Assembly (NCBI GenBank): GCA_963716945.1
Contig: OY970322.1
Location: forward strand, 390,001 to 422,000
DNA length: 32,000 nt
Direction: 5' to 3'
Origin: Candidatus Saccharimonadota bacterium
Lineage (GTDB): Bacteria; Patescibacteriota; Saccharimonadia; Saccharimonadales; UBA4665
The position numbers and the translations under genes are program-made. The notes under the pieces are model-generated. The model searched no databases. It had not been told where the DNA came from and saw only the letters and a list, made by a program, of their open reading frames with translations. This document shows positions 2,647 through 30,462 of this stretch, piece by piece. Within the stretch, counting starts at the first letter, position 1. Every line of letters begins with the position of its first letter.

Positions 2647-2728
2647 CCGTCTGCTAGCGCTTAAAACCGCTCTCCGCCGCTGCAAATCATAGCTTAGTAA
2701 GGGAGTGCTTGGTATAATCGTAAGCAAC

Positions 2729-6700: not shown

Positions 6701-9700
6701 GACTGTCTCAAGCTGGCTTCCGGCAGCAGCGGCAATAACGGCGTTATAGATTTCGAAAACTGTCTCGGGGAACCCGGCGGTCCGCCGACCGGAGCGGCCG
6801 TAATACTGAACGCCGACCCGGTGGGTGGAACCGCCGGCCAGCAGCTCCAAGCGGCCTTTAACATTCAAAGCGCCGCTTACACGACCGGTAACGTCATCGA
6901 GGAGGGGCCGAGCGTTGCCGGGACGGCAGCTAACCTCTTGCAATTAGAGAATAACAGCGGCGTACAGACCTCGGCTTTCTGCCCCAACGGCAGCGAACTG
7001 TTGCTTAACCAGGCACCGAATACCTTTTGTTCGACCGCGAACGGTACCAGCGGCACGCCGTACGCCATAACGATCGGGACTGGTTCTAGCGCCCTGGCTG
7101 GCATTAACTTCGGCGGCGACAGCCAGATTTATCGTTCGGCCGCCAACACCTTCACCTTTGGGTCGGCAGCTTCGAGTCAAACGCTCCAGATATCGGCTAA
7201 TACCACCAACGGCTCGCCGGGCGGCTCGCTGACAATCCAGGGCGGTGCCGCTACGGGCCTGGTCAGCGGCGGCAACATAGTCTTGCAGGTATCACCGCCG
7301 CCGACCGCCGGTACGATTAGAAACTTTATAACCGGCCTGCTAGGGGCCACCGACGTTGCCGAGGACGGTACTTACCTATGGTGGACTACTGGCAGTACCG
7401 TGGGCCGCGCGACCCTTAACGGAAGCAGTACGCCAACCCACATCATCCCGAACTATTTCACGCTTGAAACCAAGCTCAACTACCTCGCGAGCGACGGCAA
7501 TTTCGTTTATATCTCGACTGGAGGTCGTACTATCGACAGGTTCACCATTACCAAAAATAATACTATCCCCACGTTTAGCCAAGGCAGTAACTACTGGCAA
7601 AATTATATCTGTTTGAGCAACGGGACCGTCAGTACCAGTAACGCTTCTTGCCCTAACGGCGGCGGCGACAACCTGCAAGGCCTGGCCTATGATTCTAGCA
7701 ACAAAATCATGTACTGGGCGGACAGGAGTGAAATAGGCGACTACAACACGGTTACTCTGACAGCTACCAACAACTGGTTCGTCACGAGCGGTTTGAGCAC
7801 TACCGGCTGTGGCAGCAACGGTTCCATGAACTCCGTGGGGGTCGATTCTATCAACAACATGATTTACTGGTTCTCGACGACCTGTACTGATATCGGCCAG
7901 GCCAATCTGCCCTCGGGCAATGCCGCGCCTACCAGCATCACGCCGGCCTGGTTTTCGCTTGTCGGCCAGGCCCAGGGCTCCCCATCCAGCATCCAGGGCT
8001 TGACTAGTGATGGAACTAACCTGTACTGGTCTAACATCAACAAAGACAGCATCGGCGACGTCAACATAGCCAGTGTCGCGGCGAACATGGCCAACCCGTC
8101 GAATCCGATCCTGGCTAACAGTAACCTGATATCCAATATCGGCTCGGGTACCGGCAATGGACCGCAGGGCATAGCCGTCAGCCTCACGCCTGGTTACCTG
8201 TATTGGACCCAACCAGTCGGGTCGCCGGGTTACATAGGCCGCGCCCTGGTATTAGCCACCCAGCCCAATCCCGAGCAGACGGTCTTTCAGCTAAGTGGTA
8301 CCGACGGCTCGGCACAGTTTAAGGACGCCGTCGATACTACTTCTAGCTTCCAGGTGCAGGACGCTAACGGGGCCGCGGTCTTCAACGTCGATACTCTTGA
8401 TAACGTCAGTAGCCTGGCCGGGCAATTCACGGCTGCCGGCGGCGTAACCGCCAGCGGCCTAAGCACACCGGCGGCGCCCACGATTACGCCGAACGTCCTC
8501 AATACCTGCTTGAGTTCCTCGACTACTTATACCTACGAGATCAGCGCTATTAACAGTAAGGGCGGTTCGACACCGGCCTCGGCCTTAGGTAGCACGACTT
8601 CGGGCTGCTCGTCGCTTGATACTGCGGGCGATAACATCAGCATTACCTGGACGGCCGTGCCGGGCGCTTACGGCTACAATGTTTACAGGGTAAGCAGCCC
8701 GTACACGGCTGGTTTGATCGGAACCGTGCTTACGGCTGGCGGCAGCCTATCCCTTACCGACACTGGCAACACCACACCGGTTATTTCCGCTACTGCGCCG
8801 CCAGTCAGCGACACCTCCGGCCAGCTGGCCACTTCTGGTGGCGGTGGTCTTTTGATCCAGGACGCCAGCAATACCAGCATTTTCAACGTTACTGCCGGCA
8901 GTACCTTGGCCGGGCTGGTCGCCAATGGCGATTTTGAGAGCCGCGGAACCGGGGGCTGGTTGGTGAAAAGTACCTCGTCTACCTCCACCACAGCTCTCTC
9001 AGCCGTTAATACCCAGGCGTGGGAAGGCCTTTATTCCATGAAAATAGCGGCTTCGGCCCTGGCCAATGACGGTGCCTACTACACCACCTCGTCGCCTATG
9101 GTTAGTTCGACGCAGTACACCTTGAGTTTTTACGCTAGAACCGGAAGCGGCACTATCAGTGACTTGGACGCCGGATACGAAGTGCAGGCGACGGCCACCG
9201 GGACGGGCACGGTGACTTCTACGGATACTAACTGTACCTTGTCAGCTAACTCCGTAAGCACGACCTGGACCCGATACACCTGTACGTTCACAACCGGCAC
9301 TATAACCCAAAACGGCAGTACCACCAGCACGACCAATATCTATATTAATAAGACCGGCAGCTCGGCGGAAACGTTTTACGTCGACGCCGTGCAGCTCCAG
9401 ACTGGCGGTTCGGCGACGGCTTTCAACAGCGGCAATACCATACAGATTAATGGAACTGTCAACACGGCCGTCCTCTTCCAGAACGGCCTTGATTCCACGA
9501 CCGCCTTCCAGGTTCAGAACGCGGCCGGCACGAGCAAGGTATTTGACGTTGACACCTTAGACGGCCGAGTTGGCGTTGGCACCAATGCCCCGGGTAACTT
9601 ATTGAGTATCGGCGCGTTGACGACGGCAGCCGGTACTTACCAGATAGCTGTCACTACCGGTGGCTCGGCTAATAGTGGTATTGTCGTCCAAACGGTGCTC

Positions 9701-10162
9701 GGGCAGAGCGGGGGGAACGTTTTCCAGGCCCAAGACTCGACTGGCGCTGCCCTAGCTACTATAGATTACCAAGGTAATTTGACGGTCAAGGCGGCGACCA
9801 TTAACGGTACGCTAACGGTCAACGGCCATCTTATAACTGGGTCGGCAGCGCCCACGCTGCCTACCGCCCAGACCGCCGCCGGTAGTGCTAATGGCGGTAC
9901 TTGCAGTATCAGCGCCGGTAATGACACCTCGGGCACGATTAGCGTTACGACCGGCAGCGCCGGCGTCACTACGGGAGCGTGGTGCACTTTTACCATTAGT
10001 TTCACTACGGCGCCGCGACCGGTGGTATCGGGTACTACCCAGGCTAGCGCCGCACTCCAGCCATATATGAGCGCGACGCCTACCGCCTTTAGCTTTGGCA
10101 TAGCCGGCGGAACGCCCGGCACCAGTACCACTTACACCTTTAATTACTTCAATGCCCAATAG
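3728..10162 (+). CDS. Giant N-terminally anchored surface fibre protein, paralog B (2144 aa)
   Basis: ATG start and TAG stop, with no in-frame stop over 6.4 kb. Acidic/Pro-rich cytoplasmic N-tail, basic cluster RRNRRK, then TM helix LLIVNIIILLLIIIIGLVSFFL (about nt 3881-3955). Tail-fibre-like 'GQIYYNQSDNTPYYYDGTRFVSL'. Long G/S/T/A/N beta-helix-like tracts. Six YW-type propeller blades (about 7350-8250). FN3-like 'ISITWTAVPGAYGYNVYR' (about 8465-8780). CBM4_9-like 'NGDFESRGTGGW...YTLSFYAR...FYVDAVQLQ' (about 8905-9405). The C-terminal shared domain ends TYTFNYFNAQ. Confidence 0.93.
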   Translation: MADQNESLSLVYEGSSVDSSLETQSEPQFKANPPPEYEQAPRRLSSRRNRRKLLIVNIIILLLIIIIGLVSFFLSSGPRATNASTNHKLVSYAASSLPVQNIQPNQALQVSEANQLSINGQVTIGNTLVLAPTATPTTPVTGQIYYNQSDNTPYYYDGTRFVSLASGAGLQTTAQNAPQQFVASIGGSSGSIGIGSGLALSGGELLVRLQAGPGITVNGSTVSSSGVISLTAGSSNVFITQDGKGNYTVSDHIANLITGGGTTGQIALFSGSQAVGDSILGQAGASLTVAGSFVVQSAASAASLAVANAISGGTLSVAGGKLAVDGSGNLTLQSGSTIYANNLVQTDSTQPVSINAGAKQLEFTANGINFTLPSSGGSTQVICTTGISCASGGGQAILLAPNDSASPTAHPTAQTNTAGDLPSIFINNTGGANLLELQGDGADTFVVGQSGDTVIAGTLAVQSANSLSLGTPGPAGNNGSVSFANAAGLHTVTLQAPVTDPASDLIFTLPASDGASGNCIKTDGNGNLSFGSCASGSGATAIGAIDSQSKSLNGGVISGTNLYLQSADANFPGLITTGSQTLAGDKSFNGDITLSGTGTGLSVTNSVTIGTGLTVAAGGLTVSAGTVTFSGLNTAGIVTNTSAGVLGTVAIIGVGNGGTGAGSFTSDGILYGNSGGIIQVTGAAASSILATNASDLPGLTQTLPSAVQGNITATGALAAGSIASTFGSISTASNIQTTATVQGTTVTATGALQGNSLSVNGGVFAVNNTGAITAATGISSSGTITFSGLGTGILQASAGVIGLYGGGLVAGVKDEAGTSRGGTITLNNVTFGIGGAASTLTIDTADATHNGLVTNGVQTIAGAKTLSANLTLQASPTALTINGPPSGTTSLIQLGSALGTGVGSNINSNGTFIGLDAASGSSADLLNFQANGVSDLRVDSSGNVFTAGNVTASGSLAVVSSSGNTVSLLAPSGLAAASTLTLPSTNYGSAGDCLKLASGSSGNNGVIDFENCLGEPGGPPTGAAVILNADPVGGTAGQQLQAAFNIQSAAYTTGNVIEEGPSVAGTAANLLQLENNSGVQTSAFCPNGSELLLNQAPNTFCSTANGTSGTPYAITIGTGSSALAGINFGGDSQIYRSAANTFTFGSAASSQTLQISANTTNGSPGGSLTIQGGAATGLVSGGNIVLQVSPPPTAGTIRNFITGLLGATDVAEDGTYLWWTTGSTVGRATLNGSSTPTHIIPNYFTLETKLNYLASDGNFVYISTGGRTIDRFTITKNNTIPTFSQGSNYWQNYICLSNGTVSTSNASCPNGGGDNLQGLAYDSSNKIMYWADRSEIGDYNTVTLTATNNWFVTSGLSTTGCGSNGSMNSVGVDSINNMIYWFSTTCTDIGQANLPSGNAAPTSITPAWFSLVGQAQGSPSSIQGLTSDGTNLYWSNINKDSIGDVNIASVAANMANPSNPILANSNLISNIGSGTGNGPQGIAVSLTPGYLYWTQPVGSPGYIGRALVLATQPNPEQTVFQLSGTDGSAQFKDAVDTTSSFQVQDANGAAVFNVDTLDNVSSLAGQFTAAGGVTASGLSTPAAPTITPNVLNTCLSSSTTYTYEISAINSKGGSTPASALGSTTSGCSSLDTAGDNISITWTAVPGAYGYNVYRVSSPYTAGLIGTVLTAGGSLSLTDTGNTTPVISATAPPVSDTSGQLATSGGGGLLIQDASNTSIFNVTAGSTLAGLVANGDFESRGTGGWLVKSTSSTSTTALSAVNTQAWEGLYSMKIAASALANDGAYYTTSSPMVSSTQYTLSFYARTGSGTISDLDAGYEVQATATGTGTVTSTDTNCTLSANSVSTTWTRYTCTFTTGTITQNGSTTSTTNIYINKTGSSAETFYVDAVQLQTGGSATAFNSGNTIQINGTVNTAVLFQNGLDSTTAFQVQNAAGTSKVFDVDTLDGRVGVGTNAPGNLLSIGALTTAAGTYQIAVTTGGSANSGIVVQTVLGQSGGNVFQAQDSTGAALATIDYQGNLTVKAATINGTLTVNGHLITGSAAPTLPTAQTAAGSANGGTCSISAGNDTSGTISVTTGSAGVTTGAWCTFTISFTTAPRPVVSGTTQASAALQPYMSATPTAFSFGIAGGTPGTSTTYTFNYFNAQ

Positions 10163-10195: not shown

Positions 10196-11026
10196 ATGAG
10201 GAATATGCGTAAATACTTCAAATTCCTAGCCGGTCCCGCCAGCGTTCTGTTCCTGATTGGCTTAGCGGCTTCGGCGGCTGCCTCCGGCGTCCTAATCCAA
10301 AGCTACAATGCCGGCCCTTCGGTCCTGTCCGGCATGCTCGTCGAAACCGAAGCCCGCGACCAGTCTACCGTCGTTCCGCTGACTACCCAGGGCATCCGCG
10401 GTATGCTGGGGGTAGTCGTACCGGCCAACGACGCCGCCCTTGTCCTGTCGCCGCAATCCGCATCATCCCGCCAGGTCCTGGTGGCCGCCTCCGGCAATTA
10501 CGGCGTACTGGTTAGCAACCAGGACGGTTCGGTCAAATCAGGCGACTACCTGACCATGTCGTCGTTACCTGGTATCGCCATGAAAGCCGCCAGCGACCAG
10601 TCCGAGGTTATCGGCCGCGCCGGCGGTGATTTCGATGGTGTTAATAACACCCTATCGACGGTATCGCTCAAACTTGCCGCCGGCCGTTCGGCAAAAGTCT
10701 CCATCGGCCAGGTGCCAGTCAGTGTCCGACTCGGTCCGAACCCCCTCTACCAGAAAAGTAACTTGCCGGGATTTTTGAGCCGGGCGGCCAGCGACGTTTC
10801 TAATAAACCGGGCTCGATCCGGATTTACCTTAGTTCGGCCGTCTTACTGGCTACGCTTATCATCAGCGGCGTGATGTTTTATGGCAGCGTCCGCAGCAGC
10901 ATAACAGCCATCGGCCGCAACCCCCTGGCCAAGCGGGAAATCAGCCGTGACCTCGTCCAATCGGTTGCCGCCGGCCTGGTTATCTTCTTGGCTGGCATCC
11001 TGGCGGCCTACCTCATATTAATTTAG
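10196..11026 (+). CDS. Membrane protein, paralog of 2729-3553 (signal peptide, beta-rich ectodomain, C-terminal hairpin with IGRNPLA loop)
   Basis: ATG at 10196, with an alternative ATG at 10205 giving MRKYFKF. Signal-like FLIGLAASAAAS. 'GSVKSGDYLTMSSLPGIAMKAASDQSEVIGRAG' module. The C-terminal helices flank 'IGRNPLAKREISRDL'. Stop is TAG. It lies 33 nt behind giant B, as its paralog lies behind giant A. Confidence 0.85.
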   Translation: MRNMRKYFKFLAGPASVLFLIGLAASAAASGVLIQSYNAGPSVLSGMLVETEARDQSTVVPLTTQGIRGMLGVVVPANDAALVLSPQSASSRQVLVAASGNYGVLVSNQDGSVKSGDYLTMSSLPGIAMKAASDQSEVIGRAGGDFDGVNNTLSTVSLKLAAGRSAKVSIGQVPVSVRLGPNPLYQKSNLPGFLSRAASDVSNKPGSIRIYLSSAVLLATLIISGVMFYGSVRSSITAIGRNPLAKREISRDLVQSVAAGLVIFLAGILAAYLILI

Positions 11027-11039
11027 ATCCGGGGCAAGA

Positions 11040-12023
11040 TTAATCGACGACGAAATAATCGAAACCAAAAGACGTGCCGGCCGGCGGGGCGGTCGAGTCA
11101 CAGACGGTGAAGTTGCTAGTGGTACGGTTGACATAATAACTTAAGCCGCCGGCACTAGAACCGACCGGCGTCAATAGGACATGCGGCGTGGCGTTGTACT
11201 TGGCTGTGAAATCAACGGTTATGAAACAGCCGGCCGCCGGGCCGCTGCCGGTATTGATAGTGATCGAACCGCTGGTATCGCTGCCCGACACGCTGGAAGT
11301 GCCGCCATTACCGAGGGCGCTGCCGTTGGTCCGGCCGGGCGTGCCGCCGCCGACGGTAATGTGGTGGGTCAGTACCAGGTCGCCGTTTAGCTGCAAACTG
11401 CCGGTAGTAAGTTGTGGTGCTGACAACGTTCCGCCGAAAGTTCCGCTGCCGCTAACCTGTAAGCTCTTAGCTATAGTGACCGCGCCTTGGAGGCTGGTGG
11501 TACCGGCGACGGCTAGGTTTTTGCTGACTTGGGCCTGGCCGAACTGGGCGCTGCCGGCAACCGTAACATCGTTTAGGCCCAAAGTGCCGCCGATTTGCAA
11601 GCCGCCGGCGACCTGCAAGTCTTGTCGCATCAGTACTTTACCGGCGAAAATGGCGCTGCTCTGGACATTCAGCACCTGGCTCGAATTACCGACCGTAGCG
11701 TCACTGTCGGCCAGTTGCTGGAGAGTGCTTTGGGATAAACTTTGGGACGAAACGCTGGAGCTGCCTGAATTATGCCTGCTATCGTTGTAGGCGACGAGAA
11801 CGATCCCGGCCGCCACGGCCAATAATAATATGAACAGCAGGAAATAAATATTAACCCGCTTGGCTATGCCGCGGCGCTTCTTCTTGGGCGGCGGCGAGAC
11901 CGAAGGCCCGGGCTCCAGGGTGGTTTCGGGCGGCGCCGGTTTGCCGTTGAGTTCGGGCGGGGGACTCTCCAGCGAAGCTTCCTGGGGGTCTGCTGCTAAC
12001 GGTTCAGATCGGTCCGAGTCCAT
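11040..12023 (-). CDS. Miniature member (327 aa) of the fibre family: cytoplasmic Pro-rich tail, TM anchor, short beta-helix stalk and the shared C-terminal domain
   Basis: ATG at 12023 and TAA at 11040-11042. KKKRRGIAKR followed by TM VNIYFLLFILLLAVAAGIVLVAY, the same topology as giant B. Stalk repeats 'LQVAGGLQIGGTLGLNDVTVAGSAQFG' resemble the pre-terminal stalk of giant C. The C-terminus 'SGSDTSGSITINTGS...YNATPHVLLTP...FGFDYFVVD' aligns with the ends of A, B and C. Confidence 0.85.
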   Translation of the reverse strand: MDSDRSEPLAADPQEASLESPPPELNGKPAPPETTLEPGPSVSPPPKKKRRGIAKRVNIYFLLFILLLAVAAGIVLVAYNDSRHNSGSSSVSSQSLSQSTLQQLADSDATVGNSSQVLNVQSSAIFAGKVLMRQDLQVAGGLQIGGTLGLNDVTVAGSAQFGQAQVSKNLAVAGTTSLQGAVTIAKSLQVSGSGTFGGTLSAPQLTTGSLQLNGDLVLTHHITVGGGTPGRTNGSALGNGGTSSVSGSDTSGSITINTGSGPAAGCFITVDFTAKYNATPHVLLTPVGSSAGGLSYYVNRTTSNFTVCDSTAPPAGTSFGFDYFVVD

Positions 12024-12075
12024 ATGTTATTTATACAGTATAATCGAGGAAAAGCGTAAACGGTATAAACAACCC
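12024..12075. promoter_or_regulatory. 52-bp divergent control region with mirror-image -10 boxes, each 6 nt from a start codon
   Basis: Minus-strand TATAAA (plus-strand 12030-12035) lies 6 nt before the ATG at 12023. Plus-strand TATAAA at 12064-12069 lies 6 nt before the ATG at 12076. There is an additional TATAAT at 12039-12044. No SD on either side. Confidence 0.45.
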
Positions 12076-12768
12076 ATGGCCCGACCGGAATACCAGTACA
12101 ATCATTCTGACCATATCAGGCACCGCCGGCGCTACCGGCGGCGTTTCTTCGTGGCCGCCGTCTTTTTTATAGCCGCCATGGTCGCCGCCGGCGCGCTGGC
12201 TTACAATCTGTATAACCTTAGCCGCGTCACAACTAAGCCGGTCGGAGTTACTTATCATCAGACCATCGGCGGTCTTCAGGTCACGAAGTCGGCCTACTTC
12301 GAGTTCAGCGATACCCAGGCCTGGTCTTACGCGCCGGGCGACAGCACTGCCACCGAACTGACGTACTTATTATATGAAGGCGGCCTGCCAGTCCACTCGC
12401 TGACGGTTTATATTAACCAAACGCCTCTCAACAGCGACCTGGCGGTGACACGCGTCCTGCCGGTCCAAATCAAAAACGGCAACGCTTTGATGCTCGAAGG
12501 CGACATCTCCCAGCCCTGCAGCAGCTTGTACGGACCGTCCGATCCGAAGCGCATCAAACAGGTTTCGCTCGAAGGCACCGACTTCTTATGCGTGCCCGAT
12601 TCGCCGCAATTCAGCACGGTGGTCGGGCAGGTCGGCGGCAATTACGACCTCAGCCTCAAGCGCGCCGACGGCCGGACCGCCAATTACATAATTATTTACC
12701 ATAATCTGTCAGTGGACCCGGACCCTTCGCCTTTTGTTAGGATTATGAGGACTTTCCAGGCTTTGTAG
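12076..12768 (+). CDS. Single-pass membrane protein (230 aa), N-in, with a ~180-aa external domain of unknown function
   Basis: The track ORF starts at 11860, but its first 72 codons are antisense to the 5' end of 11040-12023. ATG 12076 (MARPEYQYNHSDHIRHRRRYRRR + TM FFVAAVFFIAAMVAAGALAY) is the plausible start. Stop is TAG. Confidence 0.75.
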   Translation: MARPEYQYNHSDHIRHRRRYRRRFFVAAVFFIAAMVAAGALAYNLYNLSRVTTKPVGVTYHQTIGGLQVTKSAYFEFSDTQAWSYAPGDSTATELTYLLYEGGLPVHSLTVYINQTPLNSDLAVTRVLPVQIKNGNALMLEGDISQPCSSLYGPSDPKRIKQVSLEGTDFLCVPDSPQFSTVVGQVGGNYDLSLKRADGRTANYIIIYHNLSVDPDPSPFVRIMRTFQAL

Positions 12769-12805: not shown

Positions 12806-13558
12806 GTGATGAAGCGCTTAAGGCTGGGAGTTATATTAGGGCTGGTCGTGCTGCTCGGCACGCCGGCGGCTTTTGCCGCCCAGTCCAGTTCGCCCAATTA
12901 CCAGGTCAACGAAGTCCAGTTCGATTCCGGCGGCCTGCTGAATGCCAGTTCGCCCAACTACCAGGCCCAGCAAAGCGCCGGCTCGAACGTCGCCGGCTCG
13001 GCCTGCGGCACTCTCTACTGTGCCGACAACGGCTTCTTGACCGGCAGCGACCCGTTTCTGCAAATGGTCGTCAACCCGGCCACAGTCAACCTGGGTACTC
13101 TAAGCTCAACCGGCACTGCTACAGGGTACGCGACCTTTAGTATCCGGGCCTACCTGGACAGCGGCTACATCATAGTCAGCATGAACAACCCGCCCACCGA
13201 TAGCGAAGGCTCAACCCTGAGCGCCTTGTCCAGCCCGACGGCTTCCAGCGTCGGCACCGAGCAGTTCGGTATTAACTTAGTCCTCAACTCCACCGGTTGT
13301 GCCAATCCGGCCCCGGCCAATTACGGAGCTAACCCGTCGCTGGTACCCAGCAGCACCTTCGCCAACGGCATAGCTGCCCCCGGCTATAATACCTGCGGGT
13401 TATTTAAGTACCACAAGGGCGACACCATAGCCGAGAGCAACGGCAAGGGCTGGGGCGAAACCGATTACACCATTTCCTACATGGCAAATATTAATCCCGC
13501 CAGCAAAGCCGGCGTTTACAGCATGACTCAGGACCTGGTCGCCGTCGCTACTTATTAA
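12806..13558 (+). CDS. Secreted beta-rich subunit-like protein S0 (250 aa), first gene of the putative fibre module
   Basis: GTG at 12806 or ATG at 12809. An extended -10 (TGCTATAAT, 12792-12800) lies just upstream. Signal peptide LGLVVLLGTPAAFA|AQ. Duplicated 'SSPNYQ' motif. 'GTEQFGINLVLN' motif. C-terminus 'AGVYSMTQDLVAVATY-stop' ends in an aromatic residue like S1-S3. Confidence 0.85.
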   Translation: MMKRLRLGVILGLVVLLGTPAAFAAQSSSPNYQVNEVQFDSGGLLNASSPNYQAQQSAGSNVAGSACGTLYCADNGFLTGSDPFLQMVVNPATVNLGTLSSTGTATGYATFSIRAYLDSGYIIVSMNNPPTDSEGSTLSALSSPTASSVGTEQFGINLVLNSTGCANPAPANYGANPSLVPSSTFANGIAAPGYNTCGLFKYHKGDTIAESNGKGWGETDYTISYMANINPASKAGVYSMTQDLVAVATY

Positions 13559-13658
13559 CTAATTATTAAATTGATTCTTAGTCTTGCTAATGCTAGTCTA
13601 GTATTGTAAAGAGCCTCGTGAGGGCACATTAACTGATACGAAATAAAGAGTGCGGCGG

Positions 13659-14972
13659 ATGCGGCAACATTATATAAACATACTGGCTCAAACACGCAGA
13701 GGACTTCTGCTGCTGTCCGCCTGTTTGGTAGTCGCCGTCGGCCTGACTCCGATTATTAACGCCGGCAACGCCTCCGCCGCCCAGGTTAGCCAGCGTTCGC
13801 TGACTATCGGCAGCGGTTTGCCCAGCGCCTCAACCACTTATAACTTCAGTTTCGTACCTAATACCACCGCGGCTATCCAGGGCCTGAAATTCCAGGCCTG
13901 TACCGCGGCGATCGGTACTTGTACGGCGCCAACCGGTTTAAACTTTTCCAGCGCTGTGTTCAGTACCCTAACCGGAACTTGGACCACTGCCACGGCTTTC
14001 GCGGCTGATGCTACCGGCGCTAACGACTGTACCGCCAGTGCCAGCGTCCTCTGTGCCAAGCGTACGCAAGCTACCGCCGAGACGGGCGCTGCTGTCCGCG
14101 GATTGACATTTACGACCATCACCAACCCCAGCGGCGCCAGCTGTGCCACTGTCAACTGTACGTTCTTCGTGCGTATGACAACTTATAGTACCAATACCTA
14201 TACGGTGGTCAGCACCGTCGACACCGGCACCGTAGCCAGCTCAACTATTCAAAGCCTGACTGTTAATGCCACGATTCAAGAGCAGCTAACTTTCTGCATC
14301 GGCGCCACCACGATTGATGACTCCAACACCACTACGCCGCCGGTTTGTAGCAGTATTAGCGGTACTTCCTTGAGCCTTGGCACGCTGACATCCGCCGATA
14401 CTTCGGTGTCGCCGGTCTCGGTCGGCAATGGCGGCGACGGCAATAACGGCATCGCCGAACTTAGTACCAATGCCACGAACGGCGCCACGGTAACTTATGA
14501 CGCCATCCAGCAAGCCGGCACCAACCACAAGGGCACTCTAAGGGTAGCCGGCGCCACCTGCAACGCCAGCGCCGGCATTACCAACGACCAGTGCATCAAC
14601 GCTATCGGCACCACCCAGGCCACGATTACTGCCGGCACCGAAGCCTACGGTATGACGGTGGCCGCCGTCAACTGCAAAGCCACCACGGCCTACGCCTGCA
14701 GCTTCACCGGCGGCACCTACCACTTAATACGCGATACGCAGTACGACGGTACCGGCGGCAACACCTACCCGACCGACACCAACCTGGTCAGCGGTACCAC
14801 CAACGCCGGCTACGCCTGGGACGAGACCGGCACGCCCGATACGATAGCCACTGCCAGCACTGTCGTCGACAAGGAAGCCCTGATCCTAAAATTCGCCGCC
14901 ACCCCTAACATAGTCACGCCGGCCGGCACCTACACCGCCCAGGCCGACTTCGTCGCCACGCCGACATTCTAA
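13659..14972 (+). CDS. Secreted beta-rich subunit-like protein S1 (about 437 aa), tandem paralog of S2
   Basis: The track start is GTG 13650. ATG 13659 has AAAGAG 8 nt upstream. Signal peptide ends ...NAGNASA|AQVSQRSLTIGS. Cys-rich (QACT..GTCTAPTGL, SCATVNCTFF). 'EAYGMTVAAVN' motif. C-terminus 'AGTYTAQADFVATPTF-stop'. Confidence 0.88.
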   Translation: MRQHYINILAQTRRGLLLLSACLVVAVGLTPIINAGNASAAQVSQRSLTIGSGLPSASTTYNFSFVPNTTAAIQGLKFQACTAAIGTCTAPTGLNFSSAVFSTLTGTWTTATAFAADATGANDCTASASVLCAKRTQATAETGAAVRGLTFTTITNPSGASCATVNCTFFVRMTTYSTNTYTVVSTVDTGTVASSTIQSLTVNATIQEQLTFCIGATTIDDSNTTTPPVCSSISGTSLSLGTLTSADTSVSPVSVGNGGDGNNGIAELSTNATNGATVTYDAIQQAGTNHKGTLRVAGATCNASAGITNDQCINAIGTTQATITAGTEAYGMTVAAVNCKATTAYACSFTGGTYHLIRDTQYDGTGGNTYPTDTNLVSGTTNAGYAWDETGTPDTIATASTVVDKEALILKFAATPNIVTPAGTYTAQADFVATPTF

Positions 14973-14990
14973 CCGGTATTTAGCGCTAGC

Positions 14991-15002
14991 TGTGGATAAC
15001 TT
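14991..15002 (+). promoter_or_regulatory. 12-mer TGTGGATAACTT, whose first 9 nt are the reverse complement of the DnaA-box consensus TTATCCACA; identical copy at 19470-19481
   Basis: Exact string read at both places. Both copies lie 19-29 nt after a stop codon in AT-rich intergenic DNA, upstream of S2 and giant C respectively. Confidence 0.5.
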
Positions 15003-15108
15003 TTGGTATTTGCATAATCTTTTTGTTGTTGCATCTAAGTACTTATGCTATATTGACGGGGAGAAGGCCCTTTAAGCCGCCAAATAATATAAAAATAATA
15101 ATTAAATT

Positions 15109-16428
15109 ATGATTAAAAAAATCCACACAATCAGTCGCCAAGCCCTAAATAGGGTTAACAGGGTCGTCCTGTTGACGTTAGCAATAGTTGTTACTGCAGG
15201 CCCGGTTATGCTTATCACCCAAACGGCCACGGCCGCCCAGATTACCAACCGTTCAGTGCTGATTTCAACGGCTCAACCCAGCGCCACGGCCACCTACACC
15301 ATCGGTCTGGTGCCAGCCACCGCCGCTGCTATCCAGGGGCTAAAGCTGCAGGCCTGTACAACGGCTCTAGGTACCTGTACGGCGCCGACCGGTTTAAGCT
15401 TTTCCAGCGTGGGCGCTACCGGTACGGTAGCCGGGGCTTGGACGACTTCCACTAACTTCACTACCGGTGCCGGAACCAACGACTGTACGGCCAGTGCCAG
15501 CGTCATATGCGCCAACCGCACGGCGGCGGCCAACGAAACCGGTACGAGTGTTCGCACGGTAGCTTTCACGAACATCACCAACCCCAGCGGCGCCAGCTGT
15601 GCCACTGTCAACTGTACGTTCTTCATCCATATAACGACTTATAGTCTTAACACCTACACTGTGGGCAGCACGGTCGACACCGGCACGGTCGCCAGTTCGA
15701 CCACCCAGCTCTTCACGGTTAACGCGGCGATTCAAGAGCAGCTAACTTTCTGCATCGGCGCCACCACGATTGATGACTCCAACACCACTACGCCGCCGGT
15801 TTGCAGCAGTATTAGCGGCACCTCGCTTAACTTGGGTACCTTGAACTCCGCCGATACTTCGGTGTCGCCGGTCTCGGTCGGCAATGGCGGCGACGGCAAT
15901 AACGGCATCGCCGAACTTAGTACCAATGCCACCAACGGTACGACCGTGGCCTATGACGCGGTGCAGCAAGCCGGCACCAACCACAAGGGCACTCTAAGGG
16001 TAGCTGGCGCCACCTGCAACGCCAGTGCCGGCATTACCAACGACCAGTGCATCAACGCTATCGGTACGACCCAAACGGCCATCACGGCCGGCACCGAAGC
16101 CTACGGCATGACTATCGCCGCCGTCAACTGCAAGGCCACCACGGCCTATTCATGCAGCTTCACGGCTGGTACGTACAACCTGACCAGGAACGCCCAATAT
16201 GACGGCACCGGCGGCAACACCTACCCGACCGACACCAACCTGGTCAGCGGTACCACCAACGCCGGCTACGCCTGGGACGAGACCGGAACCTCGGACACGA
16301 TTGCCAGCTCGACAACTATCGTCGACAAGGAAGCCCTGATCCTAAAATTCGCCGCCACCCCTAACATAGTCACGCCGGCCGGCACCTACACCGCCCAGGC
16401 CGACTTCGTCGCCACGCCGACATTCTAA
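15109..16428 (+). CDS. Secreted beta-rich subunit-like protein S2 (439 aa), tandem paralog of S1
   Basis: ATG start and TAA stop. Signal peptide ends ...TQTATA|AQITNRSVLIST. Collinear with S1 at a 1456-nt offset. The C-terminal ~230 aa are near-identical to S1 and the N-terminal ~200 aa are much more diverged. Confidence 0.9.
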   Translation: MIKKIHTISRQALNRVNRVVLLTLAIVVTAGPVMLITQTATAAQITNRSVLISTAQPSATATYTIGLVPATAAAIQGLKLQACTTALGTCTAPTGLSFSSVGATGTVAGAWTTSTNFTTGAGTNDCTASASVICANRTAAANETGTSVRTVAFTNITNPSGASCATVNCTFFIHITTYSLNTYTVGSTVDTGTVASSTTQLFTVNAAIQEQLTFCIGATTIDDSNTTTPPVCSSISGTSLNLGTLNSADTSVSPVSVGNGGDGNNGIAELSTNATNGTTVAYDAVQQAGTNHKGTLRVAGATCNASAGITNDQCINAIGTTQTAITAGTEAYGMTIAAVNCKATTAYSCSFTAGTYNLTRNAQYDGTGGNTYPTDTNLVSGTTNAGYAWDETGTSDTIASSTTIVDKEALILKFAATPNIVTPAGTYTAQADFVATPTF

Positions 16429-16435
16429 CCGGCCT

Positions 16436-17482
16436 ATGAGCCGCGCAAGCTTACGGACCGCCAGACTGGCAGCGGTGCTGATGCTTTGCTTGTCGCCTTA
16501 CTTCTTTTGGCCGGGCCAGACGTCGGCTCTGCTGCTGACCCACCGTTCTGTCAGCTTATCGACGCCCGTGCCCTCGGCCACGGCTTCAGAAGCGTTTACG
16601 CTGACCCCCGGCTCCGGCTCGGCCGCCGGTTCGATAGTTTTTCAATACTGCACCAACTCGCCCCTTTTTGATCTGGCTTGCGTGCCGCCGGCCGGCCTGT
16701 CGCTCAGCGCGGCTGCCTTGAGCCAGCAGACAGGCAACACGGGCTTCAGCATAGACGCTGCCGATAGTACCGCTACGCGGCTGGTCATCAGCCGGGTGCC
16801 GGCAGCCATGTCGACCGCTCCCAGCAGCTATACTTTTGCCAATACGACCAATCCGTCAACCAGCAATGAAACGACCTATATTCGTATTAGCACCTACGCC
16901 TCTACCGATGGTACCGGCAGCTATATCGATAACGGGGCAGTGGCTTTCTCGACATCGGCCGGGTTGTCGGTCGGGGCTACCGTGCCGCCGTTTTTGAGCC
17001 TCTGCGTGGGCGTGACGGTAGCCACCGATTGCAGCCAGACTGCCGGCGATAGCGTGGATCTGGGGGTCTTAAGCGCCCAGGCCGCCCGGACCGGCACGTC
17101 CCAGTTTGCCGCCTCTACTAACAGCGGTACCGGCTATGCCGCCTATGTCCTGGGCACGACCATGACATCCGGGAATAACGTTATTCCGGCCGCGGCCCTG
17201 TCCGCCAGCCGTCCCGGAATCTCTGAGTTCGGTGTTAACTTACGCCAAAATACCAATCCGGCCGTCGGTTCCGACCCTGACGGGGCCGGCACGGCAACGC
17301 CGCTTAACGGCTTCGACACGCCTAACTTATTCAGCTTCGATCCGGGGGCGATGATAGCCGGTTCGGACACTTCGACGGCTTACAGCCGCATGACAGTATC
17401 CTATGTCACTAACGTGAATTCCGGCCAGCCGGCCGGCATCTATAGCACGACCTTGACCTACCTCGTCTCGGCCCAATTCTAA
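16436..17482 (+). CDS. Secreted beta-rich subunit-like protein S3 (348 aa), distant paralog of S1/S2
   Basis: Starts 7 nt after the S2 stop. Signal ends GQTSA|LLLTHRSVSLST (compare QRSLTIGS and NRSVLIST). 'IVFQYCTNSP..LACVPPAGL' parallels 'LKFQACT..GTCTAPTGL'. 'ISEFGVNLRQN' motif. C-terminus 'AGIYSTTLTYLVSAQF-stop'. Confidence 0.88.
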   Translation: MSRASLRTARLAAVLMLCLSPYFFWPGQTSALLLTHRSVSLSTPVPSATASEAFTLTPGSGSAAGSIVFQYCTNSPLFDLACVPPAGLSLSAAALSQQTGNTGFSIDAADSTATRLVISRVPAAMSTAPSSYTFANTTNPSTSNETTYIRISTYASTDGTGSYIDNGAVAFSTSAGLSVGATVPPFLSLCVGVTVATDCSQTAGDSVDLGVLSAQAARTGTSQFAASTNSGTGYAAYVLGTTMTSGNNVIPAAALSASRPGISEFGVNLRQNTNPAVGSDPDGAGTATPLNGFDTPNLFSFDPGAMIAGSDTSTAYSRMTVSYVTNVNSGQPAGIYSTTLTYLVSAQF

Positions 17483-17524
17483 AAATACTTTATCTCACTA
17501 ATATAAAATGATACACTTACGCTG

Positions 17525-18547
17525 ATGAAGTTAACTAAGAGGGTAGCCGAGGCCGTGCTTTACTTAAAACGCCCCTTGTTAGGGCTGGGCCTTGCCCTAA
17601 CCGTGGCCTTATCGACCGGCCTGACCGCCCAGGCCGCCACCACGCCCGCCGGCAGCGCCAGCGGCCTAAGCATATCGCCCCTCCGCCAGGAACTGACCCT
17701 CAAGCCCGGCCAAGCTGACGAGATCAGCATCACCCTCAAGAACATTACCGGCGGCCCTATAACCGCCAAGGTAGCCGTCCAGGATTTCGAATCCGACAAC
17801 CTGACCGGCAACCCCAAGATTATCACCGACCCTAAGGCCAACAACCCGGCCAGCATCCGCAACTTCCTGGTCGGCCTTGGCAACATACCGCTGGCCACCG
17901 GCGAGCAGAAGACATTCACCATACCGGTCCAAGCCCCGGCTAATGCCGCGCCCGGCGCTTATTACGGCCTGATCGAGTACCAAGCCATACCTGTCAATAA
18001 CTCCAACCAGGGCGGCAATAGCCAGGTGGGCCTGTCGGCCGCCGTCAGCCAGCTGGTCTTCATCACCGTACCCGGCAACATTACCCAGAGGATGGAGATC
18101 AACGGTATCCACGTTTACCGGGATAAACTCGGTACCAAAGAGGGCCTGTTCTTTACCAGCCCGCCGAAAACCGACGGCATAATGCTGACCAACCTCGGCA
18201 ACGGTTTTGCCAAGCCCTTTGGCCGGATTAGCGTCCAAAACTCCAGCGGCAAGGAGATTTACGCCTATCAGCTCAACGGCGGTATAACCCCCGAACTGGT
18301 CCTGCCGCACAGCAGCCGCCTCTTCATTAACGGCATCAGTAACATCAAACGGCCGGGCCGCTACACGATAGTCGCCAACATCTCCTACGGCTCCGGTTCA
18401 GCCATCCTGACCGGCAAAAAGACCTTCTGGTACATCCCGGCCTGGCTGCCGGCCGCCGTCATCGTCGTCCTGGCCCTGCTGGCCGGCGCGGCCGTCCTGG
18501 CCCGCCGCCGTTACAAGCGCGGCCCCGGCCACCAATACCACCGTTAG
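17525..18547 (+). CDS. C-terminally anchored surface protein with a DUF916/DUF3324-like (Ig-like) ectodomain; candidate assembly/chaperone-like component
   Basis: Signal peptide ends ...GLTAQA|ATTP. 'LTLKPGQADEISITLKNITGGPITAKVAVQDF...GNPKII...IPLATGEQKTFTIPVQAPANAAPGAYYGLIEYQ' follows the pattern I recall for DUF916 proteins of Firmicute WxL loci. C-terminal TM WLPAAVIVVLALLAGAAVLA is followed by RRRYKR. The family assignment is from memory and was not searched. Confidence 0.8.
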   Translation: MKLTKRVAEAVLYLKRPLLGLGLALTVALSTGLTAQAATTPAGSASGLSISPLRQELTLKPGQADEISITLKNITGGPITAKVAVQDFESDNLTGNPKIITDPKANNPASIRNFLVGLGNIPLATGEQKTFTIPVQAPANAAPGAYYGLIEYQAIPVNNSNQGGNSQVGLSAAVSQLVFITVPGNITQRMEINGIHVYRDKLGTKEGLFFTSPPKTDGIMLTNLGNGFAKPFGRISVQNSSGKEIYAYQLNGGITPELVLPHSSRLFINGISNIKRPGRYTIVANISYGSGSAILTGKKTFWYIPAWLPAAVIVVLALLAGAAVLARRRYKRGPGHQYHR

Positions 18548-18550
18548 GAC

Positions 18551-19441
18551 ATGAAAAACCATCGTGCCGCCGTCCGGTTGTTGAAACGAAGCGGACCGGC
18601 CATAGCCGGCCTCCTAATCGGCGGCCTGGTGCTGTTAGCGCCGCCTCGTCCGGCCGTAGCGGCAACCGTGCAAAATAACAGTGCCGTCGGCGTCCAGGGC
18701 GTCATCCCCAGCCCGCCGCCGAGCCGCGGCGGCACCATCGCCGTACCCGGTAACGGCGCCTCATTCACCAGCGGCACCATAACCGTCAGCGGCCTCTGTC
18801 CGACCGGCTTGCTGGTCAAAGTCTTCGACAATAACGTCTTCGTCGGCTCGGTTATCTGTTCCAACGGCAGCTACTCGCTGCAGATCAACCTCTTCAACGG
18901 CCAGAACGAGCTGGTGACGCGGGTTTACGACGCCCTTGACCAGCCGGGGCCCGATTCCGGCACGACCACCGTAACTTTCACCGATGCCCAGTTCGCCCAG
19001 TTCGGTACCCAGGTGACGCTGAGCAGCGTCTATGCCGAACGCGGTGCTGCCCCGGGAACGGAGTTGGACTGGCCGATCTTGCTGAGTGGCGGTAGCAGCC
19101 CTTATGCCCTCAGCGTTGACTGGGGTGACGGTTCGCCATCGGACCTGATGAGCCTCGTCAACACCGGCACAGTAACCATTAAGCATACTTATAAGTCGGC
19201 CGGAGTCTACAATGTCGTAGTCAAGGCGACCGACGCCAATGGCCAGGCGGCTTTTCTGCAGCTGGTCGGGCAGGCCACCGGCGCTATCCAGAGCAACAAA
19301 GGCGGCAGCAGTATCCTGGTCAAGAAGCAAGTTTTATGGTGGCCAACAACCTCTATGATACCGCTGATTTTCATCGCCTTTTGGATCGGCCGCAGTTATC
19401 AGATTCACGCTTTGCGTAAGAAGTTCGAAAGCGTAGATTAG
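18551..19441 (+). CDS. C-terminally anchored protein with an Ig-like domain and a PKD domain
   Basis: Starts 3 nt after the previous stop. Signal/anchor AIAGLLIGGLVLLAPP. The PKD signature 'LSVDWGDGSPSD...HTYKSAGVYNVVVKATDANGQ' is present. C-terminal TM MIPLIFIAFWIG is followed by a basic tail. Stop is TAG. Confidence 0.85.
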   Translation: MKNHRAAVRLLKRSGPAIAGLLIGGLVLLAPPRPAVAATVQNNSAVGVQGVIPSPPPSRGGTIAVPGNGASFTSGTITVSGLCPTGLLVKVFDNNVFVGSVICSNGSYSLQINLFNGQNELVTRVYDALDQPGPDSGTTTVTFTDAQFAQFGTQVTLSSVYAERGAAPGTELDWPILLSGGSSPYALSVDWGDGSPSDLMSLVNTGTVTIKHTYKSAGVYNVVVKATDANGQAAFLQLVGQATGAIQSNKGGSSILVKKQVLWWPTTSMIPLIFIAFWIGRSYQIHALRKKFESVD

Positions 19442-19777: not shown

Positions 19778-22700
19778 ATGTACGAAACTGCTCCGCGAGG
19801 GCATATCGCGTCCGAACGTACCCATGGGCTACGGGCTAAGAGGGTAATTTTTGCCGTTGGTGGCAGCTTGCTGGCCCCGACGGTGTTTTTATATACGCGC
19901 GCGTACGCGCGTATTAACAAGCTGCGTACCCGCGGTTTCATTCTGGCCATTGTGGCGCTGGCCCTGTTAACTTCGGTCGGCCTGAGTTTGTTGAGGCCGG
20001 CCCAAACCGTTGCCGCCACTGACAGCAGTATCAACTTCCAGGCCCGGTTGGAAACCAACACCGGTGCGATCGTGCCTGACGGCTGGTACAACATTGAGTT
20101 CAAGATGTATAGCGTTTCCAGCGGCGGCAGCCCCGAGTGGACCGAAGACTACACTTGGAACAATGGCAGTGCCAACTGTACTACACCCGTTTTCCAGGCT
20201 ACCGGCGACTGCCGCGTCAAGGTGGTTAACGGCTACCTGACGGTTAATCTGGGCTCGATTACCAGTTTCCCGGGCACGATTAACTGGGACCAGCAGCAGT
20301 GGGTGACGATGAACATCGGCGGTACCGGCGGCAGCGGTTCTTTCCCCGGCATCGGCGACGGCGAAATGAACCCCCGTTTGCAGCTAACCGGTGTACCGTA
20401 CTCCTTCCGGTCAGGGCAGGCTGGCGGCTTGTTCGATCCGGCTGGCACTGGCGCGGCTCTAAGCTGGATTACCCAAACCGCCGCCAACGTGCTGCAGCTA
20501 CCTAACGAAGGCGGAACATTGTGTATCGACGGTGACACTAGTGGTTGTGGTTTTGCTCCGGGTACCGGAGGCGCGGGTTATATCCAGAACCAGAATGCTT
20601 CGGCCCAAACTACCTCCAACTTCTGGATTAGCGGTAGCGGCCAGGCTACTACTTCGTTCATAGCGCCGACTTATACCGGGGGCGGCGCGGTCGCCGTATC
20701 CTCCGGGGGGACTAATACCAATTTGACCCTTACGGCCAACGGTACCGGGACGGCTAGCCTAGATACGGGGGCTAACGGCGGCACGGTATCCGTAGCTTTG
20801 ACGGCCGGCACGTTAAACCTGGCAAATTCTGCCAGCGCCACGACTATTAACATCGGCAACACGTCCGGCGCTACCGGTATTACCGAGCGCGTCGGTACCG
20901 GCAACTACAGCCTGGACGGTGTCGCCGGCTCCACCTACAGCCTGGGCGCTTCCACGACCACGGGTACTATCCTAATTGGCGGCACGGCTCAGACCGGCAG
21001 CATCACCCTGGGCAGCTCTTCCGGCACTAACTCCGTCCTAATAGGCAACGGTGCCGGGGCTACGACCGTCAACATCGCCAACACCGAAACCGGCGGTGCC
21101 GTCAACATCGGTACGGCTATGACTACCGGCACGGTCTCCATTGGCGGTACCGGCGCCCAGACTGGCACCATTAGCCTGGGTATCGGTACCGGCGTCCAGA
21201 CGATTAACCTGGCCACTGGCGGTACCGGCGCCAAGACCGTCACGGTCGGTTCGGCCGCTTCCACTTCGTCATTACTGCTACAATCCGGTACCGGCAACTT
21301 GTCCCTGCAGACCCAGGGCACCGGCACCTTAGGCGTTGGCAACAATGCCGTGGCGCAGAACCTGGCCATCGGCAATGCTACGGGGGCTACGACCGTGTCG
21401 GTCCTATGCGGTACGGGCATCTGTGGCTTCGGGAATAACGCTACCAGCCATAGTACTAGTATCGGGTCCGGTACAGGTGTTAGCGCTTTGACTCTTCAGG
21501 GCGGCACCGGTGGCGCCTCACTGGATTCTGGCACGGGCAGCATAACAATCGGTAACAGTGCCAACAACAAGACCATCACAATCGGTGCCAGTGGGAGCAC
21601 GGCCAATACTACGACCGTCAATATCGCTACTTCTACAGGTGCCTCTCAGACGGTCAATATCGGCTCGAACTCTGGCACCAGTCCCGTCACCATAGGTAGC
21701 GGCACCAGCGGTATCACGCTTAACCCGTCAGGCGGCAGTTCCAACCAGGGCGTCCTGGTCAAGCCTGACGCCGACACGACCGCTGCCTTCCAGATTCAAA
21801 GGGCCGGCAGTAGCACCGACCTGCTCAACGCCGATACTGCCAATATGACGCTGACTGTCCAAGCCGGCAACGACACGGCCACCCTTGGCGCCAACCTGGC
21901 CCCGACCAACTTCAGCACCGGCTGGACCGGCACCAACTGGACGCTCGCCAGCACCACTGCCGCCCACAACGCCCTGTCCGGCCACACCCAGGCCTTGTCG
22001 CCGACCACGCCCTTGGCCACCACCTCCGGCCAGGTCTACCAGATCAGCTACACCATCACCAACCCGACTACCGCCGGCACCAGCCTGACGGTGGCCCTGG
22101 GCAGCACTACCATAGCCTTCTACAACTTCGACGCTAACACGGCCGGCACCTACAGCTTCACCGACACCGTCATGGCGACCGCCCCCAGCAATAATGCCAA
22201 CCTGACCTTCACGCCTGATGCCTCCGGCCTGTTCACCGGCACCATATCGGCCGTTTCGGTCCAACTGGTGACCCAGAACACTGACCCAGTTCTAGTAGTT
22301 AACAACGCCTCTGCCGTTGACGACCTAGAAGTCCGGGCCAGCAGCAGTACTACCAACCTCTTCGTCGGTCTCAGTGCGGGAGCGTCAAACGCCACCGGTA
22401 TCGACAATCTGGCGCTGGGCAACAACGCTTTCCAGTACAACACTGGCGGCAGTACCAACCTGGCTATTGGCGCTGATGCCCTCCAGTACAACACCACCGG
22501 CAACGACAACAGCGCCTTGGGCTACGAGGCTCTCCAGTTCAACACTTCCGGCGGCCAGAACACGGCCCTGGGTTCCGGCGCTCTCAGCGACAATACGATC
22601 GGCAGTTACAACGTGGCTGTAGGCGGCAACTCGCTCCAGTACAACAGTTCGGGCTACTCCAACACCGCCGTCGGCATAGCCACCTTGCAGAACAACACCA

Positions 22701-26920: not shown

Positions 26921-30104
<3,184 letters not shown>

Positions 30105-30166: not shown

Positions 30167-30340
30167 TTAGCACCGATTACAGTCGTTTGTCTTAATTGGC
30201 ATATTTCAAACATTTGAACTACGGCCTAAACACGGCCTACGTCCAAACGTTTGAAAACGCCGCGTGAGCTGATCTTTAAGCCGTGATTTTGTAATCAATG
30301 GACACCGATCAGGCGTCTCATCTACGGAGAGACGACCTGA

Positions 30341-30452
30341 TTGGTGCCCATAGCCCGAGGGCAACACCTGTTCCCATGCCGAACACAGCAGTTAAGCCTC
30401 GGAGCGGTTACAATACTTGGGGTCCACCCCTGGGAAAATAGCACGGTGCCAA
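30341..30452 (+). rRNA. rrf: 5S ribosomal RNA
   Basis: ttggtgcccatagc...cctgttcccatgccgaacacagcagttaagc...ggggtccacccctgggaaaatagcacggtgccaa matches the 5S consensus (CCCATGCCGAAC.CAG.AGTTAAGC). The terminal helix pairs ttggtgcc with ggtgccaa using two G-U pairs. Confidence 0.9.
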
Positions 30453-30462
30453 ATTTTGAAGA

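Follow-up and report, generated by a model that had tools for sequence, protein, structure and literature searches.

What is encoded by six adjacent, co-oriented genes at positions 12806-19441 of a 32,000-nucleotide (nt) stretch of DNA from a Candidatus Saccharimonadota bacterium (GenBank assembly GCA_963716945.1, contig OY970322.1, positions 390,001 to 422,000; here called the window)? The first four products, named S0, S1, S2 and S3 in gene order, are pilin-like, and they are followed by a chaperone-like protein and a PKD-domain protein; a first-pass annotation had read the set as an undescribed fibre or fimbria module with the logic of donor-strand pili. Comparison with curated models and with a published system indicates that the region is very probably a pam operon, encoding the donor-strand-assembled Pam pilus, specific to the candidate phyla radiation (CPR), of a single-membrane Saccharimonadia bacterium. 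The fibre module and its donor-strand logic were thus largely right, as the Pam models and homology to filaments solved by cryo-electron microscopy (cryo-EM) indicate. The word undescribed has to be dropped: the system is already known, since Troman et al. introduced the Pam pilus in a preprint of 2026 (bioRxiv 10.64898/2026.03.03.709456). As a class of pili it has only recently been recognised, in CPR bacteria (Patescibacteria), which are ultrasmall and live attached to other bacteria, and it probably serves to reach host cells; the present locus adds a further Saccharimonadia lineage with the core operon (T, pilins, one chaperone, R). The interest that remains lies in a cysteine-rich class of pilins (S1 and S2) missed by the models and in a possible deep link between Pam chaperones and the DUF916/WxLIP proteins.

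Curated models and the published Pam system

Three of the six proteins score above the cut-offs of curated models in NCBIfam release 20.0. S0 (12806-13558, on the forward strand like the other five genes; 250 aa), a candidate single-domain tip pilin, is PamT by the equivalog model NF058579 (CPR_pilus_PamT, "CPR-type pilus protein PamT") with 271.4 bits against a cut-off of 240, and it also contains the Pam pilin C-terminal domain NF058581 ("Pam pilus system pilin subunit") at 140.5 bits against a cut-off of 55. The same domain is found at residues 203-348 of S3 (16436-17482, 348 aa) with 145.4 bits (cut-off 55). The PKD protein (18551-19441, 296 aa) is PamR by the equivalog NF058578 (CPR_pilus_PamR, "pilus system RbmA-like protein PamR") with 370 bits against a cut-off of 300, and the anchor role first suggested for it agrees with the membrane-anchor function proposed for PamR.

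In the work of Troman et al. (10.64898/2026.03.03.709456) the filaments of Ca. Mycosynbacter amalyticus, a Saccharimonadia parasite, were solved by cryo-EM and contain two pilins, PamA and PamB (WP_260763287 and WP_260763280), assembled by donor-strand exchange without an usher. PamA has ~100 extra residues, in its N-terminal domain; PamE is a third pilin; PamT consists of the C-terminal domain only and is the proposed tip. PamC and PamD are PapD/FimC-like but carry a C-terminal transmembrane (TM) helix, and PamR, which is RbmA-like, is proposed to terminate and anchor the fibre: its N-terminal strand would plug the last pilin, and its TM helix would act as the anchor. The gene order deduced from the accession numbers in the preprint appears to be T-A-E-D-R-B-C, and the order in the window (T, S1, S2, S3, chaperone, R) is the T-A-E-D-R part of it. 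The two systems are also alike in their Saccharimonadia host, in two-domain pilins with a linker, in a TM-anchored chaperone-like protein, in having no usher, and in the succession T, pilins, chaperone, R, with PamT, PamR and the Pam pilin C-terminal domain all recognised by their models. These comparisons support the view that S0-S3 are related, secreted subunits of one fibre module, and homology to the cryo-EM-solved filaments likewise supports putative assembly by donor-strand exchange without usher or sortase.

The individual proteins fit this scheme to different degrees. PamR of the window comprises an N-terminal strand at residues 44-52 (SAVGVQGVI), two domains resembling immunoglobulin (Ig) or fibronectin type III folds, and a TM helix at 261-280; the PKD domain scores 26.1 bits in Pfam. 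Across 120 homologues the strand after the signal peptide (consensus SGSIGLQGTISSAPP), the Ig/PKD-like domains and the C-terminal TM segment are >90% conserved, and the conserved strand and helix match the proposal of plug and anchor in the preprint. S0 consists of the acceptor C-terminal domain only, without a donor linker. Its N-terminal extension of ~65 aa (residues ~25-92, window 12878-13080) bears three S-x-(N/S)-Y repeats (QSSSxNYQVNE...CSxNYCSKQS...SxNYQAQ), which are kept in 10 of 10 PamT orthologues and possibly form a host-contacting tip. S3, a canonical two-domain Pam pilin, PamE-like by position and encoded directly upstream of the chaperone gene, can be read as an adaptor joining the shaft to PamR.

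When species-representative genomes were scanned with PamR, nine related loci were found in metagenome-assembled genomes of Saccharimonadia, M. amalyticus not being among them. Eight of the nine show the same arrangement as the window (PamT is preceded by a divergent fibre-like gene and followed by one or two pilins in the place of PamA, then an S3-like pilin, a single chaperone and PamR), and the ninth has the identical gene set with PamR inverted; orthologues of PamT and of S3 lie at the matching position in all nine. Identities to the window proteins, the top of each range being the close relative L001, are 50-70% for PamR in eight loci and 35% in the most distant locus (L009), 41-68% for PamT, 34-54% for the S3-like pilin and 29-65% for the chaperone. 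Pilins at the PamA position are only 27-30% identical to S1/S2 in most loci (53-67% in L001), so that the presumed shaft subunits would be the fastest-evolving part of the system; compared with PamR they diversify strongly. S1, S2, the chaperone candidate and PamR all have 100% matches on one contig of 1,099,440 bp, and the nearest homologues with a named source are almost all from Saccharimonadales, Saccharimonadia or Saccharibacteria.

At the level of gene layout, the six open reading frames (ORFs) of the first-pass annotation were recovered unchanged. Two that pass no Pam model follow S0: S1 (13650-14972, 440 aa), a Pam-type pilin with two domains that belongs to a divergent subclass rich in Cys and is the candidate major pilin, and its tandem paralogue S2 (15109-16428, 439 aa), of the same architecture; the third is the candidate membrane-anchored chaperone (PamD/PamC-like; 17525-18547, 340 aa) between S3 and PamR. 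From S0 to PamR the intergenic gaps are 91, 136, 7, 42 and 3 nt, the last three as originally reported. A scan for promoters and terminators gave counts at or under shuffled expectation, and the short gaps alone support transcription units. In a hydropathy scan all ORFs except S3 show a hydrophobic segment at the N-terminus, and the chaperone candidate and the PKD protein also have a C-terminal hydrophobic helix; the N-terminus of S3 (AAVLMLCLSPYFFW) falls under the threshold of the scan, and its signal peptide is therefore called by reading of the sequence only. The number of Cys residues is 4, 13, 12 and 5 in S0, S1, S2 and S3, 0 in the chaperone candidate and 2 in the PKD protein. Reverse-strand ORFs within the genes (e.g. 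17666-18310) were discarded as artefacts of the high G+C content.

Set beside M. amalyticus, the window also differs. It has two tandem pilins, 76% identical, at the PamA position, which escape NF058581; the extra residues of S1 and S2, with 12 Cys, lie in the C-terminal domain and not, as in PamA, in the N-terminal domain; there is one chaperone, and the window has neither a PamB/PamC pair after PamR nor a 55-kDa pilin, on which grounds M. amalyticus itself was rejected as the source; and a giant surface protein and 23S and 5S rRNA genes lie downstream. Several points weigh against the assignment to the Pam system. S1 and S2 fail the curated pilin model, and their size and insertion pattern fits neither PamA nor PamB; neither the 32-kb window nor the +/-10 kb around the related loci yielded another chaperone, a further pilin or any counterpart of PamB or PamC; S1-S3 and the chaperone candidate were set beside PamA-E by published description only; in the preprint itself the roles of chaperone and anchor are proposals drawn from AlphaFold models; and the pilus of the source organism is known from its genes alone, no filament having been observed.

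Pilin homology and the donor strand

Three motifs had been proposed to unite the S proteins, and two of them hold as first written. The strand following the predicted cleavage site, (T/S)x-R-S-x-x-(L/I)-(S/G)-(S/T), is located at residues 47-55 of S1, 46-54 of S2 and 35-43 of S3; the motif around it spans residues 44-55 of S1 (AQVSQRSLTIGS; 13779-13814, with the strand predicted at 49-53), 15238-15273 in S2 and 16529-16564 in S3, all on the forward strand. The C-terminal motif G.Y(S/T)......(V/A)...(F/Y) stands directly before the stop codon in all four. The internal motif is present in all four in the general form (F/Y)G(I/V/M)(N/T)(L/V/I); in its exact form it occurs in S0 (QFGINL) and S3 (EFGVNL) only, S1 and S2 having the loose version E-A-YGMTV/I. 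The resemblance extends well beyond these motifs. By blastp, S1 and S2 are 76% identical, residues 39-248 of S1 align with 27-214 of S3 (E = 3e-12), and residues 93-250 of S0 align with 206-348 of S3 (E = 8.5e-8); by hhalign, the C-terminal domains of the S3 and S0 families match with a probability of 99.7% (E = 2.5e-25) and those of the S1 and S3 families with 96.9% (E = 1.5e-10). Judged by these alignments, the sharing of motifs among S0-S3 is a matter of homology and not of chance.

The position of S1 and S2 needs closer argument, as neither has a match in Pfam or NCBIfam. In S1 the N-terminal domain covers about residues 47-199, the inter-domain linker 200-210 and the C-terminal domain 211-440. 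Mature S1 and S2 have 12 Cys, compared with 4 in mature S3, and in a global alignment their C-terminal domain shows three or four insertions, several with paired Cys; it is because of these insertions that NF058581 misses them. A profile of the C-terminal domain was built from S3-like, PamT-like and other-locus pilins, with S1, S2 and their L001 orthologues excluded, and this independent profile finds residues 198-440 of S1 (50.2 bits, profile positions 1-184) and 197-439 of S2 (46.3 bits) over its full length. With NF058581, the pilins that occupy this position elsewhere among the related loci score 101, 100, 92, 85, 70, 31, 29, 27, 16 and none, and thus form a continuum; of 47 members of the S1 family, eight are touched by the model, weakly. 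On the N-domain homology to S3, the C-domain profile and hhalign matches, and this continuum, S1 and S2 are placed among the Pam pilins despite missing the NCBIfam model. The S1-like family has at least 439 proteins in Saccharimonadia. S1 and S2 would represent a third structural class of Pam pilin, one that is widespread, is marked by Cys-rich insertions into its C-terminal domain and escapes the curated models. Together with the chaperone family (6357 clusters) these pilins form an annotation gap, being left as "hypothetical" by current NCBIfam models.

A second question is which strand is donated. The first-pass annotation had cast the post-cleavage N-terminal strand in this role. The main text of the preprint of Troman et al. 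gives the donated strand as the linker between the two pilin domains, which in S1 is residues 200-210 (IQSLTVNATIQ; 14247-14279, forward strand), in S2 200-209 and in S3 176-183, although a legend in the supplement speaks instead of a "donated N-terminal linker". In the 24 two-domain pilins of the window and the nine related loci, the linker invariably alternates hydrophobic residues in the pattern x-(I/V/L)-x-(I/V)-x-A-x-(I/V), and it is absent from PamT; such a distribution is what is predicted if a donor strand is combined with a strand-less cap, or if a polymer has a cap. In the monomer AlphaFold2 (AF2) model of S1 the linker has a predicted local distance difference test score (pLDDT) of about 32. 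These data fit the linker as donor, short of proof, and the donor strand is probably the linker rather than the post-cleavage strand, which may also take part in strand exchange. As a separate observation, the most conserved pilin motif differs from the stretch that the preprint names as donor: across the same 24 proteins the best conserved stretch is the post-cleavage A-A-Q-(I/L/V)-T-x-R-S-x-x-(L/M)-S.

The S1 model as a whole (pLDDT 85.3) has two beta domains, and when it was compared with the PDB by Foldseek the matches were generic Ig-like proteins (integrin alpha, MSCRAMMs, BslA, SpaD) with low TM-scores, because the orientation of the two domains in the model is arbitrary. The search is uninformative as to whether the C-terminal domain resembles WxL or chaperone-usher pilins. 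Such generic matches are what might be expected if the S proteins were unrelated secreted Ig-like adhesins or S-layer-type proteins, having in common only the traits of beta-sandwiches and exchanging no strands. Specific homology, both to the curated Pam models and among S0-S3, argues against this, as does the strict conservation of the operon with its chaperone-like and anchor genes, and unrelated adhesins are regarded as very unlikely. Neither did the similarity to WxL or SCPU proteins that had first been noted survive: S0-S3 have no Pfam match at E<=1, including WxL (PF13731), SCPU and fimbrial families, no W-x-L motif and no LPxTG motif occurs at their C-termini, and the C-terminal-domain profile found no PDB chain although 9i25, with its WxL partner, was in the copy searched. 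In sequence searches of that copy, which was without the Pam cryo-EM structures, nothing significant was found with S1, S3, the C-terminal-domain profile or the chaperone profile.

The membrane-anchored chaperone candidate

The product of 17525-18547 was modelled by AF2 with a pLDDT of 84.1 and a predicted TM-score (pTM) of 0.69. The model consists of a signal helix, an Ig-like sandwich at residues 48-156 (DUF916-like), a disordered loop at 161-169, an alternating-hydrophobic strand, a second Ig-like sandwich at 173-303 and a C-terminal TM helix at 307-331 (18443-18517, forward strand). Its best match in Foldseek is the WxLIP of Enterococcus faecium (9i1y_A; E = 4.5e-11, probability 1.0), the next is a WxLIP bound to its WxL protein (9i25_C, probability 1.0), and these are followed, again with probability 1.0, by CfaA, CsuC, DraB, FimC, EcpB and Caf1M, which are chaperones of chaperone-usher systems, and by RbmA. 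On this model the protein is a membrane-tethered, two-Ig-domain, chaperone-like protein and a candidate counterpart of PamD/PamC. The chaperone profile finds exactly one such protein per locus in the window and the related loci.

The first-pass annotation had called this gene DUF916/DUF3324-like, and the two halves of that claim fared differently. PF06030 (WxLIP_PGBD, formerly DUF916; gathering score 27.3) matches the window protein at 19.1 bits (E = 1.3e-3), under the gathering score; the only other Pfam matches, to NPCBM_assoc and DUF11, are weak. Among relatives, counted at E<=0.01, PF06030 is matched by 29 of 44 close ones (best E 1.2e-6) and by 34 of 44 distant ones (23-32% identity, best E 9.7e-9), and several relatives bear precomputed PF06030 matches. 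A profile of the diverse chaperone family, run against the PDB, aligned with EfmWxLIP1 along the entire N-terminal domain at E about 0.12 and found no chaperone-usher chaperone. DUF3324 (PF11797) was matched by none of 89 family members at E<=0.01. The architecture and the membrane tether therefore stand, as does a resemblance of the first domain to DUF916, and DUF3324 does not. The family, which has no NCBIfam model, counts 6357 clusters at 50% identity (E<=1e-3).

These matches are also the strength of another explanation, by which the locus would make a surface complex of the WxL/Csc kind, its DUF916-like protein holding one or a few S proteins at the surface by strand completion without any polymerisation. 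In its favour are the top structural match to E. faecium WxLIP, including the WxL-bound entry, the frequency of PF06030 among the relatives, and a common layout (signal peptide, Ig, Ig, C-terminal TM helix) in a partner protein from monoderm hosts that is predicted to complete the WxL sandwich (PMC10599100; PDB 9i1y, 9i25). A WxLIP consists of DUF916, DUF3324 and a TM helix and occurs in WxL/Csc clusters with small and large WxL proteins; in contrast, the window subunits have neither a WxL domain nor W-x-L motifs, the second chaperone domain misses DUF3324 in all 89 family members scanned, and there is no LPxTG protein (CscD). Polymerisation is not known for WxL proteins, whereas S0, S3 and PamR pass Pam models whose proteins have homologues in cryo-EM-solved filaments, and the alternating-hydrophobic linker occurs in every two-domain pilin and not in PamT. 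A non-polymerising WxL/Csc-like complex is accordingly considered improbable, and the Pam pilus is retained.

The similarity to CfaA, CsuC, FimC and Caf1M raises a further alternative, a pilus of the classical chaperone-usher or sortase type, with the usher or sortase encoded beyond this region or unrecognised, and several large unannotated ORFs do flank the locus. The first-pass annotation had seen no usher, sortase or LPxTG motif, and none was found in any ORF tested: sortase and usher families have no match in Pfam or NCBIfam among the other long ORFs of the window, the chaperone candidate has no Pfam match to PapD_N or PapD_C, and no such gene is conserved within +/-10 kb of the nine related loci. 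Saccharimonadia are not known to have an outer membrane that could hold an usher. The chaperone candidate is TM-anchored, unlike soluble periplasmic chaperones. A hidden usher or sortase is thus the least probable of the explanations considered, to the point of being hardly credible. Pili of the chaperone-usher type (Pap/Fim, CFA/I, Csu) nonetheless resemble the putative Pam pilus of the window in the logic of tip, shaft and terminator and in incomplete Ig-like subunits which would be completed by a strand of the chaperone and then of the next subunit. They differ from it in having an usher and an outer membrane, in that the chaperone of the window is membrane-anchored, and in that its pilins have an extra N-terminal domain and would donate an internal linker, not an N-terminal extension.

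A more tentative idea, possible but rather less probable than its negation, is that Pam chaperones and the Firmicute WxLIP proteins (DUF916-DUF3324-TM) are homologous and form one monoderm family of membrane-tethered chaperones acting by strand complementation. Hassan et al. 2023 (PMC10599100) predict that a disordered hairpin of WxLIP turns into a strand and so completes the WxL sandwich, which is a chaperone-like logic; that paper is silent on chaperones, and the preprint of Troman et al. is silent on WxL and DUF916. If the idea is true, Pam pili would descend from WxL-type surface complexes, or have a common origin with them, and not with Gram-negative chaperone-usher systems, and WxL clusters would also act by donor-strand complementation; a real link would join two poorly understood monoderm surface systems and suggest a testable mechanism for WxL clusters.

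Proposed assembly and neighbouring genes

By homology with the M. amalyticus system, a path of assembly can be proposed. All components of the pilus would be exported by Sec, and the C-terminal domain of each pilin would be an incomplete Ig-like barrel whose groove is occupied first by a strand of the membrane-anchored chaperone and then, in donor-strand exchange, by the linker strand from between the domains of the next pilin. PamT, which has no N-terminal domain and no linker and can therefore only accept a strand, would start the fibre and cap its distal tip. S1 and S2, likely the shaft subunits, would extend it by linker-strand exchange, possibly in alternating stretches like PamA and PamB, and S3 (PamE-like) would adapt the shaft to PamR, the N-terminal strand of which would fill the last groove while the C-terminal helix would fix the fibre to the cytoplasmic membrane. 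An usher would not be needed, as there is no outer membrane. The likely function of such a pilus, by analogy, is long-range contact with a host bacterium.

Conserved neighbours of pam genes in the preprint are a 'tail fibre-like protein' and, commonly, ATP synthase genes (10.64898/2026.03.03.709456). In the window no long ORF tested has a family match to ATP synthase genes. The divergent neighbour of pamT (11040-12023, reverse strand), an N-terminally anchored fibre-like protein of 327 aa found upstream of pamT in eight of the nine related loci, may be the tail fibre-like protein of that neighbourhood analysis; whether it belongs to the pilus system is uncertain. It shares a C-terminal domain of ~120-180 aa (blastp E = 5e-18 and 7.5e-6) with two giant N-terminally anchored surface proteins, one of 2144 aa (3728-10162) with CBM_4_9 at residues 1730-1873 and one of 2002 aa (19778-25786).

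Between the first giant gene and the divergent neighbour, 10196-11026 encodes a protein of 276 aa that has a signal peptide and, at its C-terminal end, two hydrophobic helices. It was considered as a second chaperone (PamC) and rejected, since the chaperone profile misses it. In L001 its homologue lies directly after pamR (10998-11819) and is followed by a homologue of the giant protein, a position which suggests rearrangement between lineages. Between the divergent neighbour and pamT, 12073-12768 encodes an N-terminally anchored protein of 231 aa with weak Pfam hints of DUF5671 and VirB8; of the related loci, only L001, the closest relative, has a counterpart (56% identity). The long ORFs at 28-2646 (872 aa) and 2705-3553 (282 aa) have no match in Pfam or NCBIfam.

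Toward the other end of the window, no 16S rRNA or tRNA gene occurs in the 26 kb upstream of the 23S rRNA gene (26923-30104), and the rRNA genes therefore appear to be unlinked. A 5S rRNA gene (30340-30454) follows the 23S gene, and ORFs listed at 27-31 kb are spurious, as they lie inside the rRNA genes. The 23S gene is 3182 nt long, compared with 2925 nt for the Rfam model, and thus probably carries an insertion.

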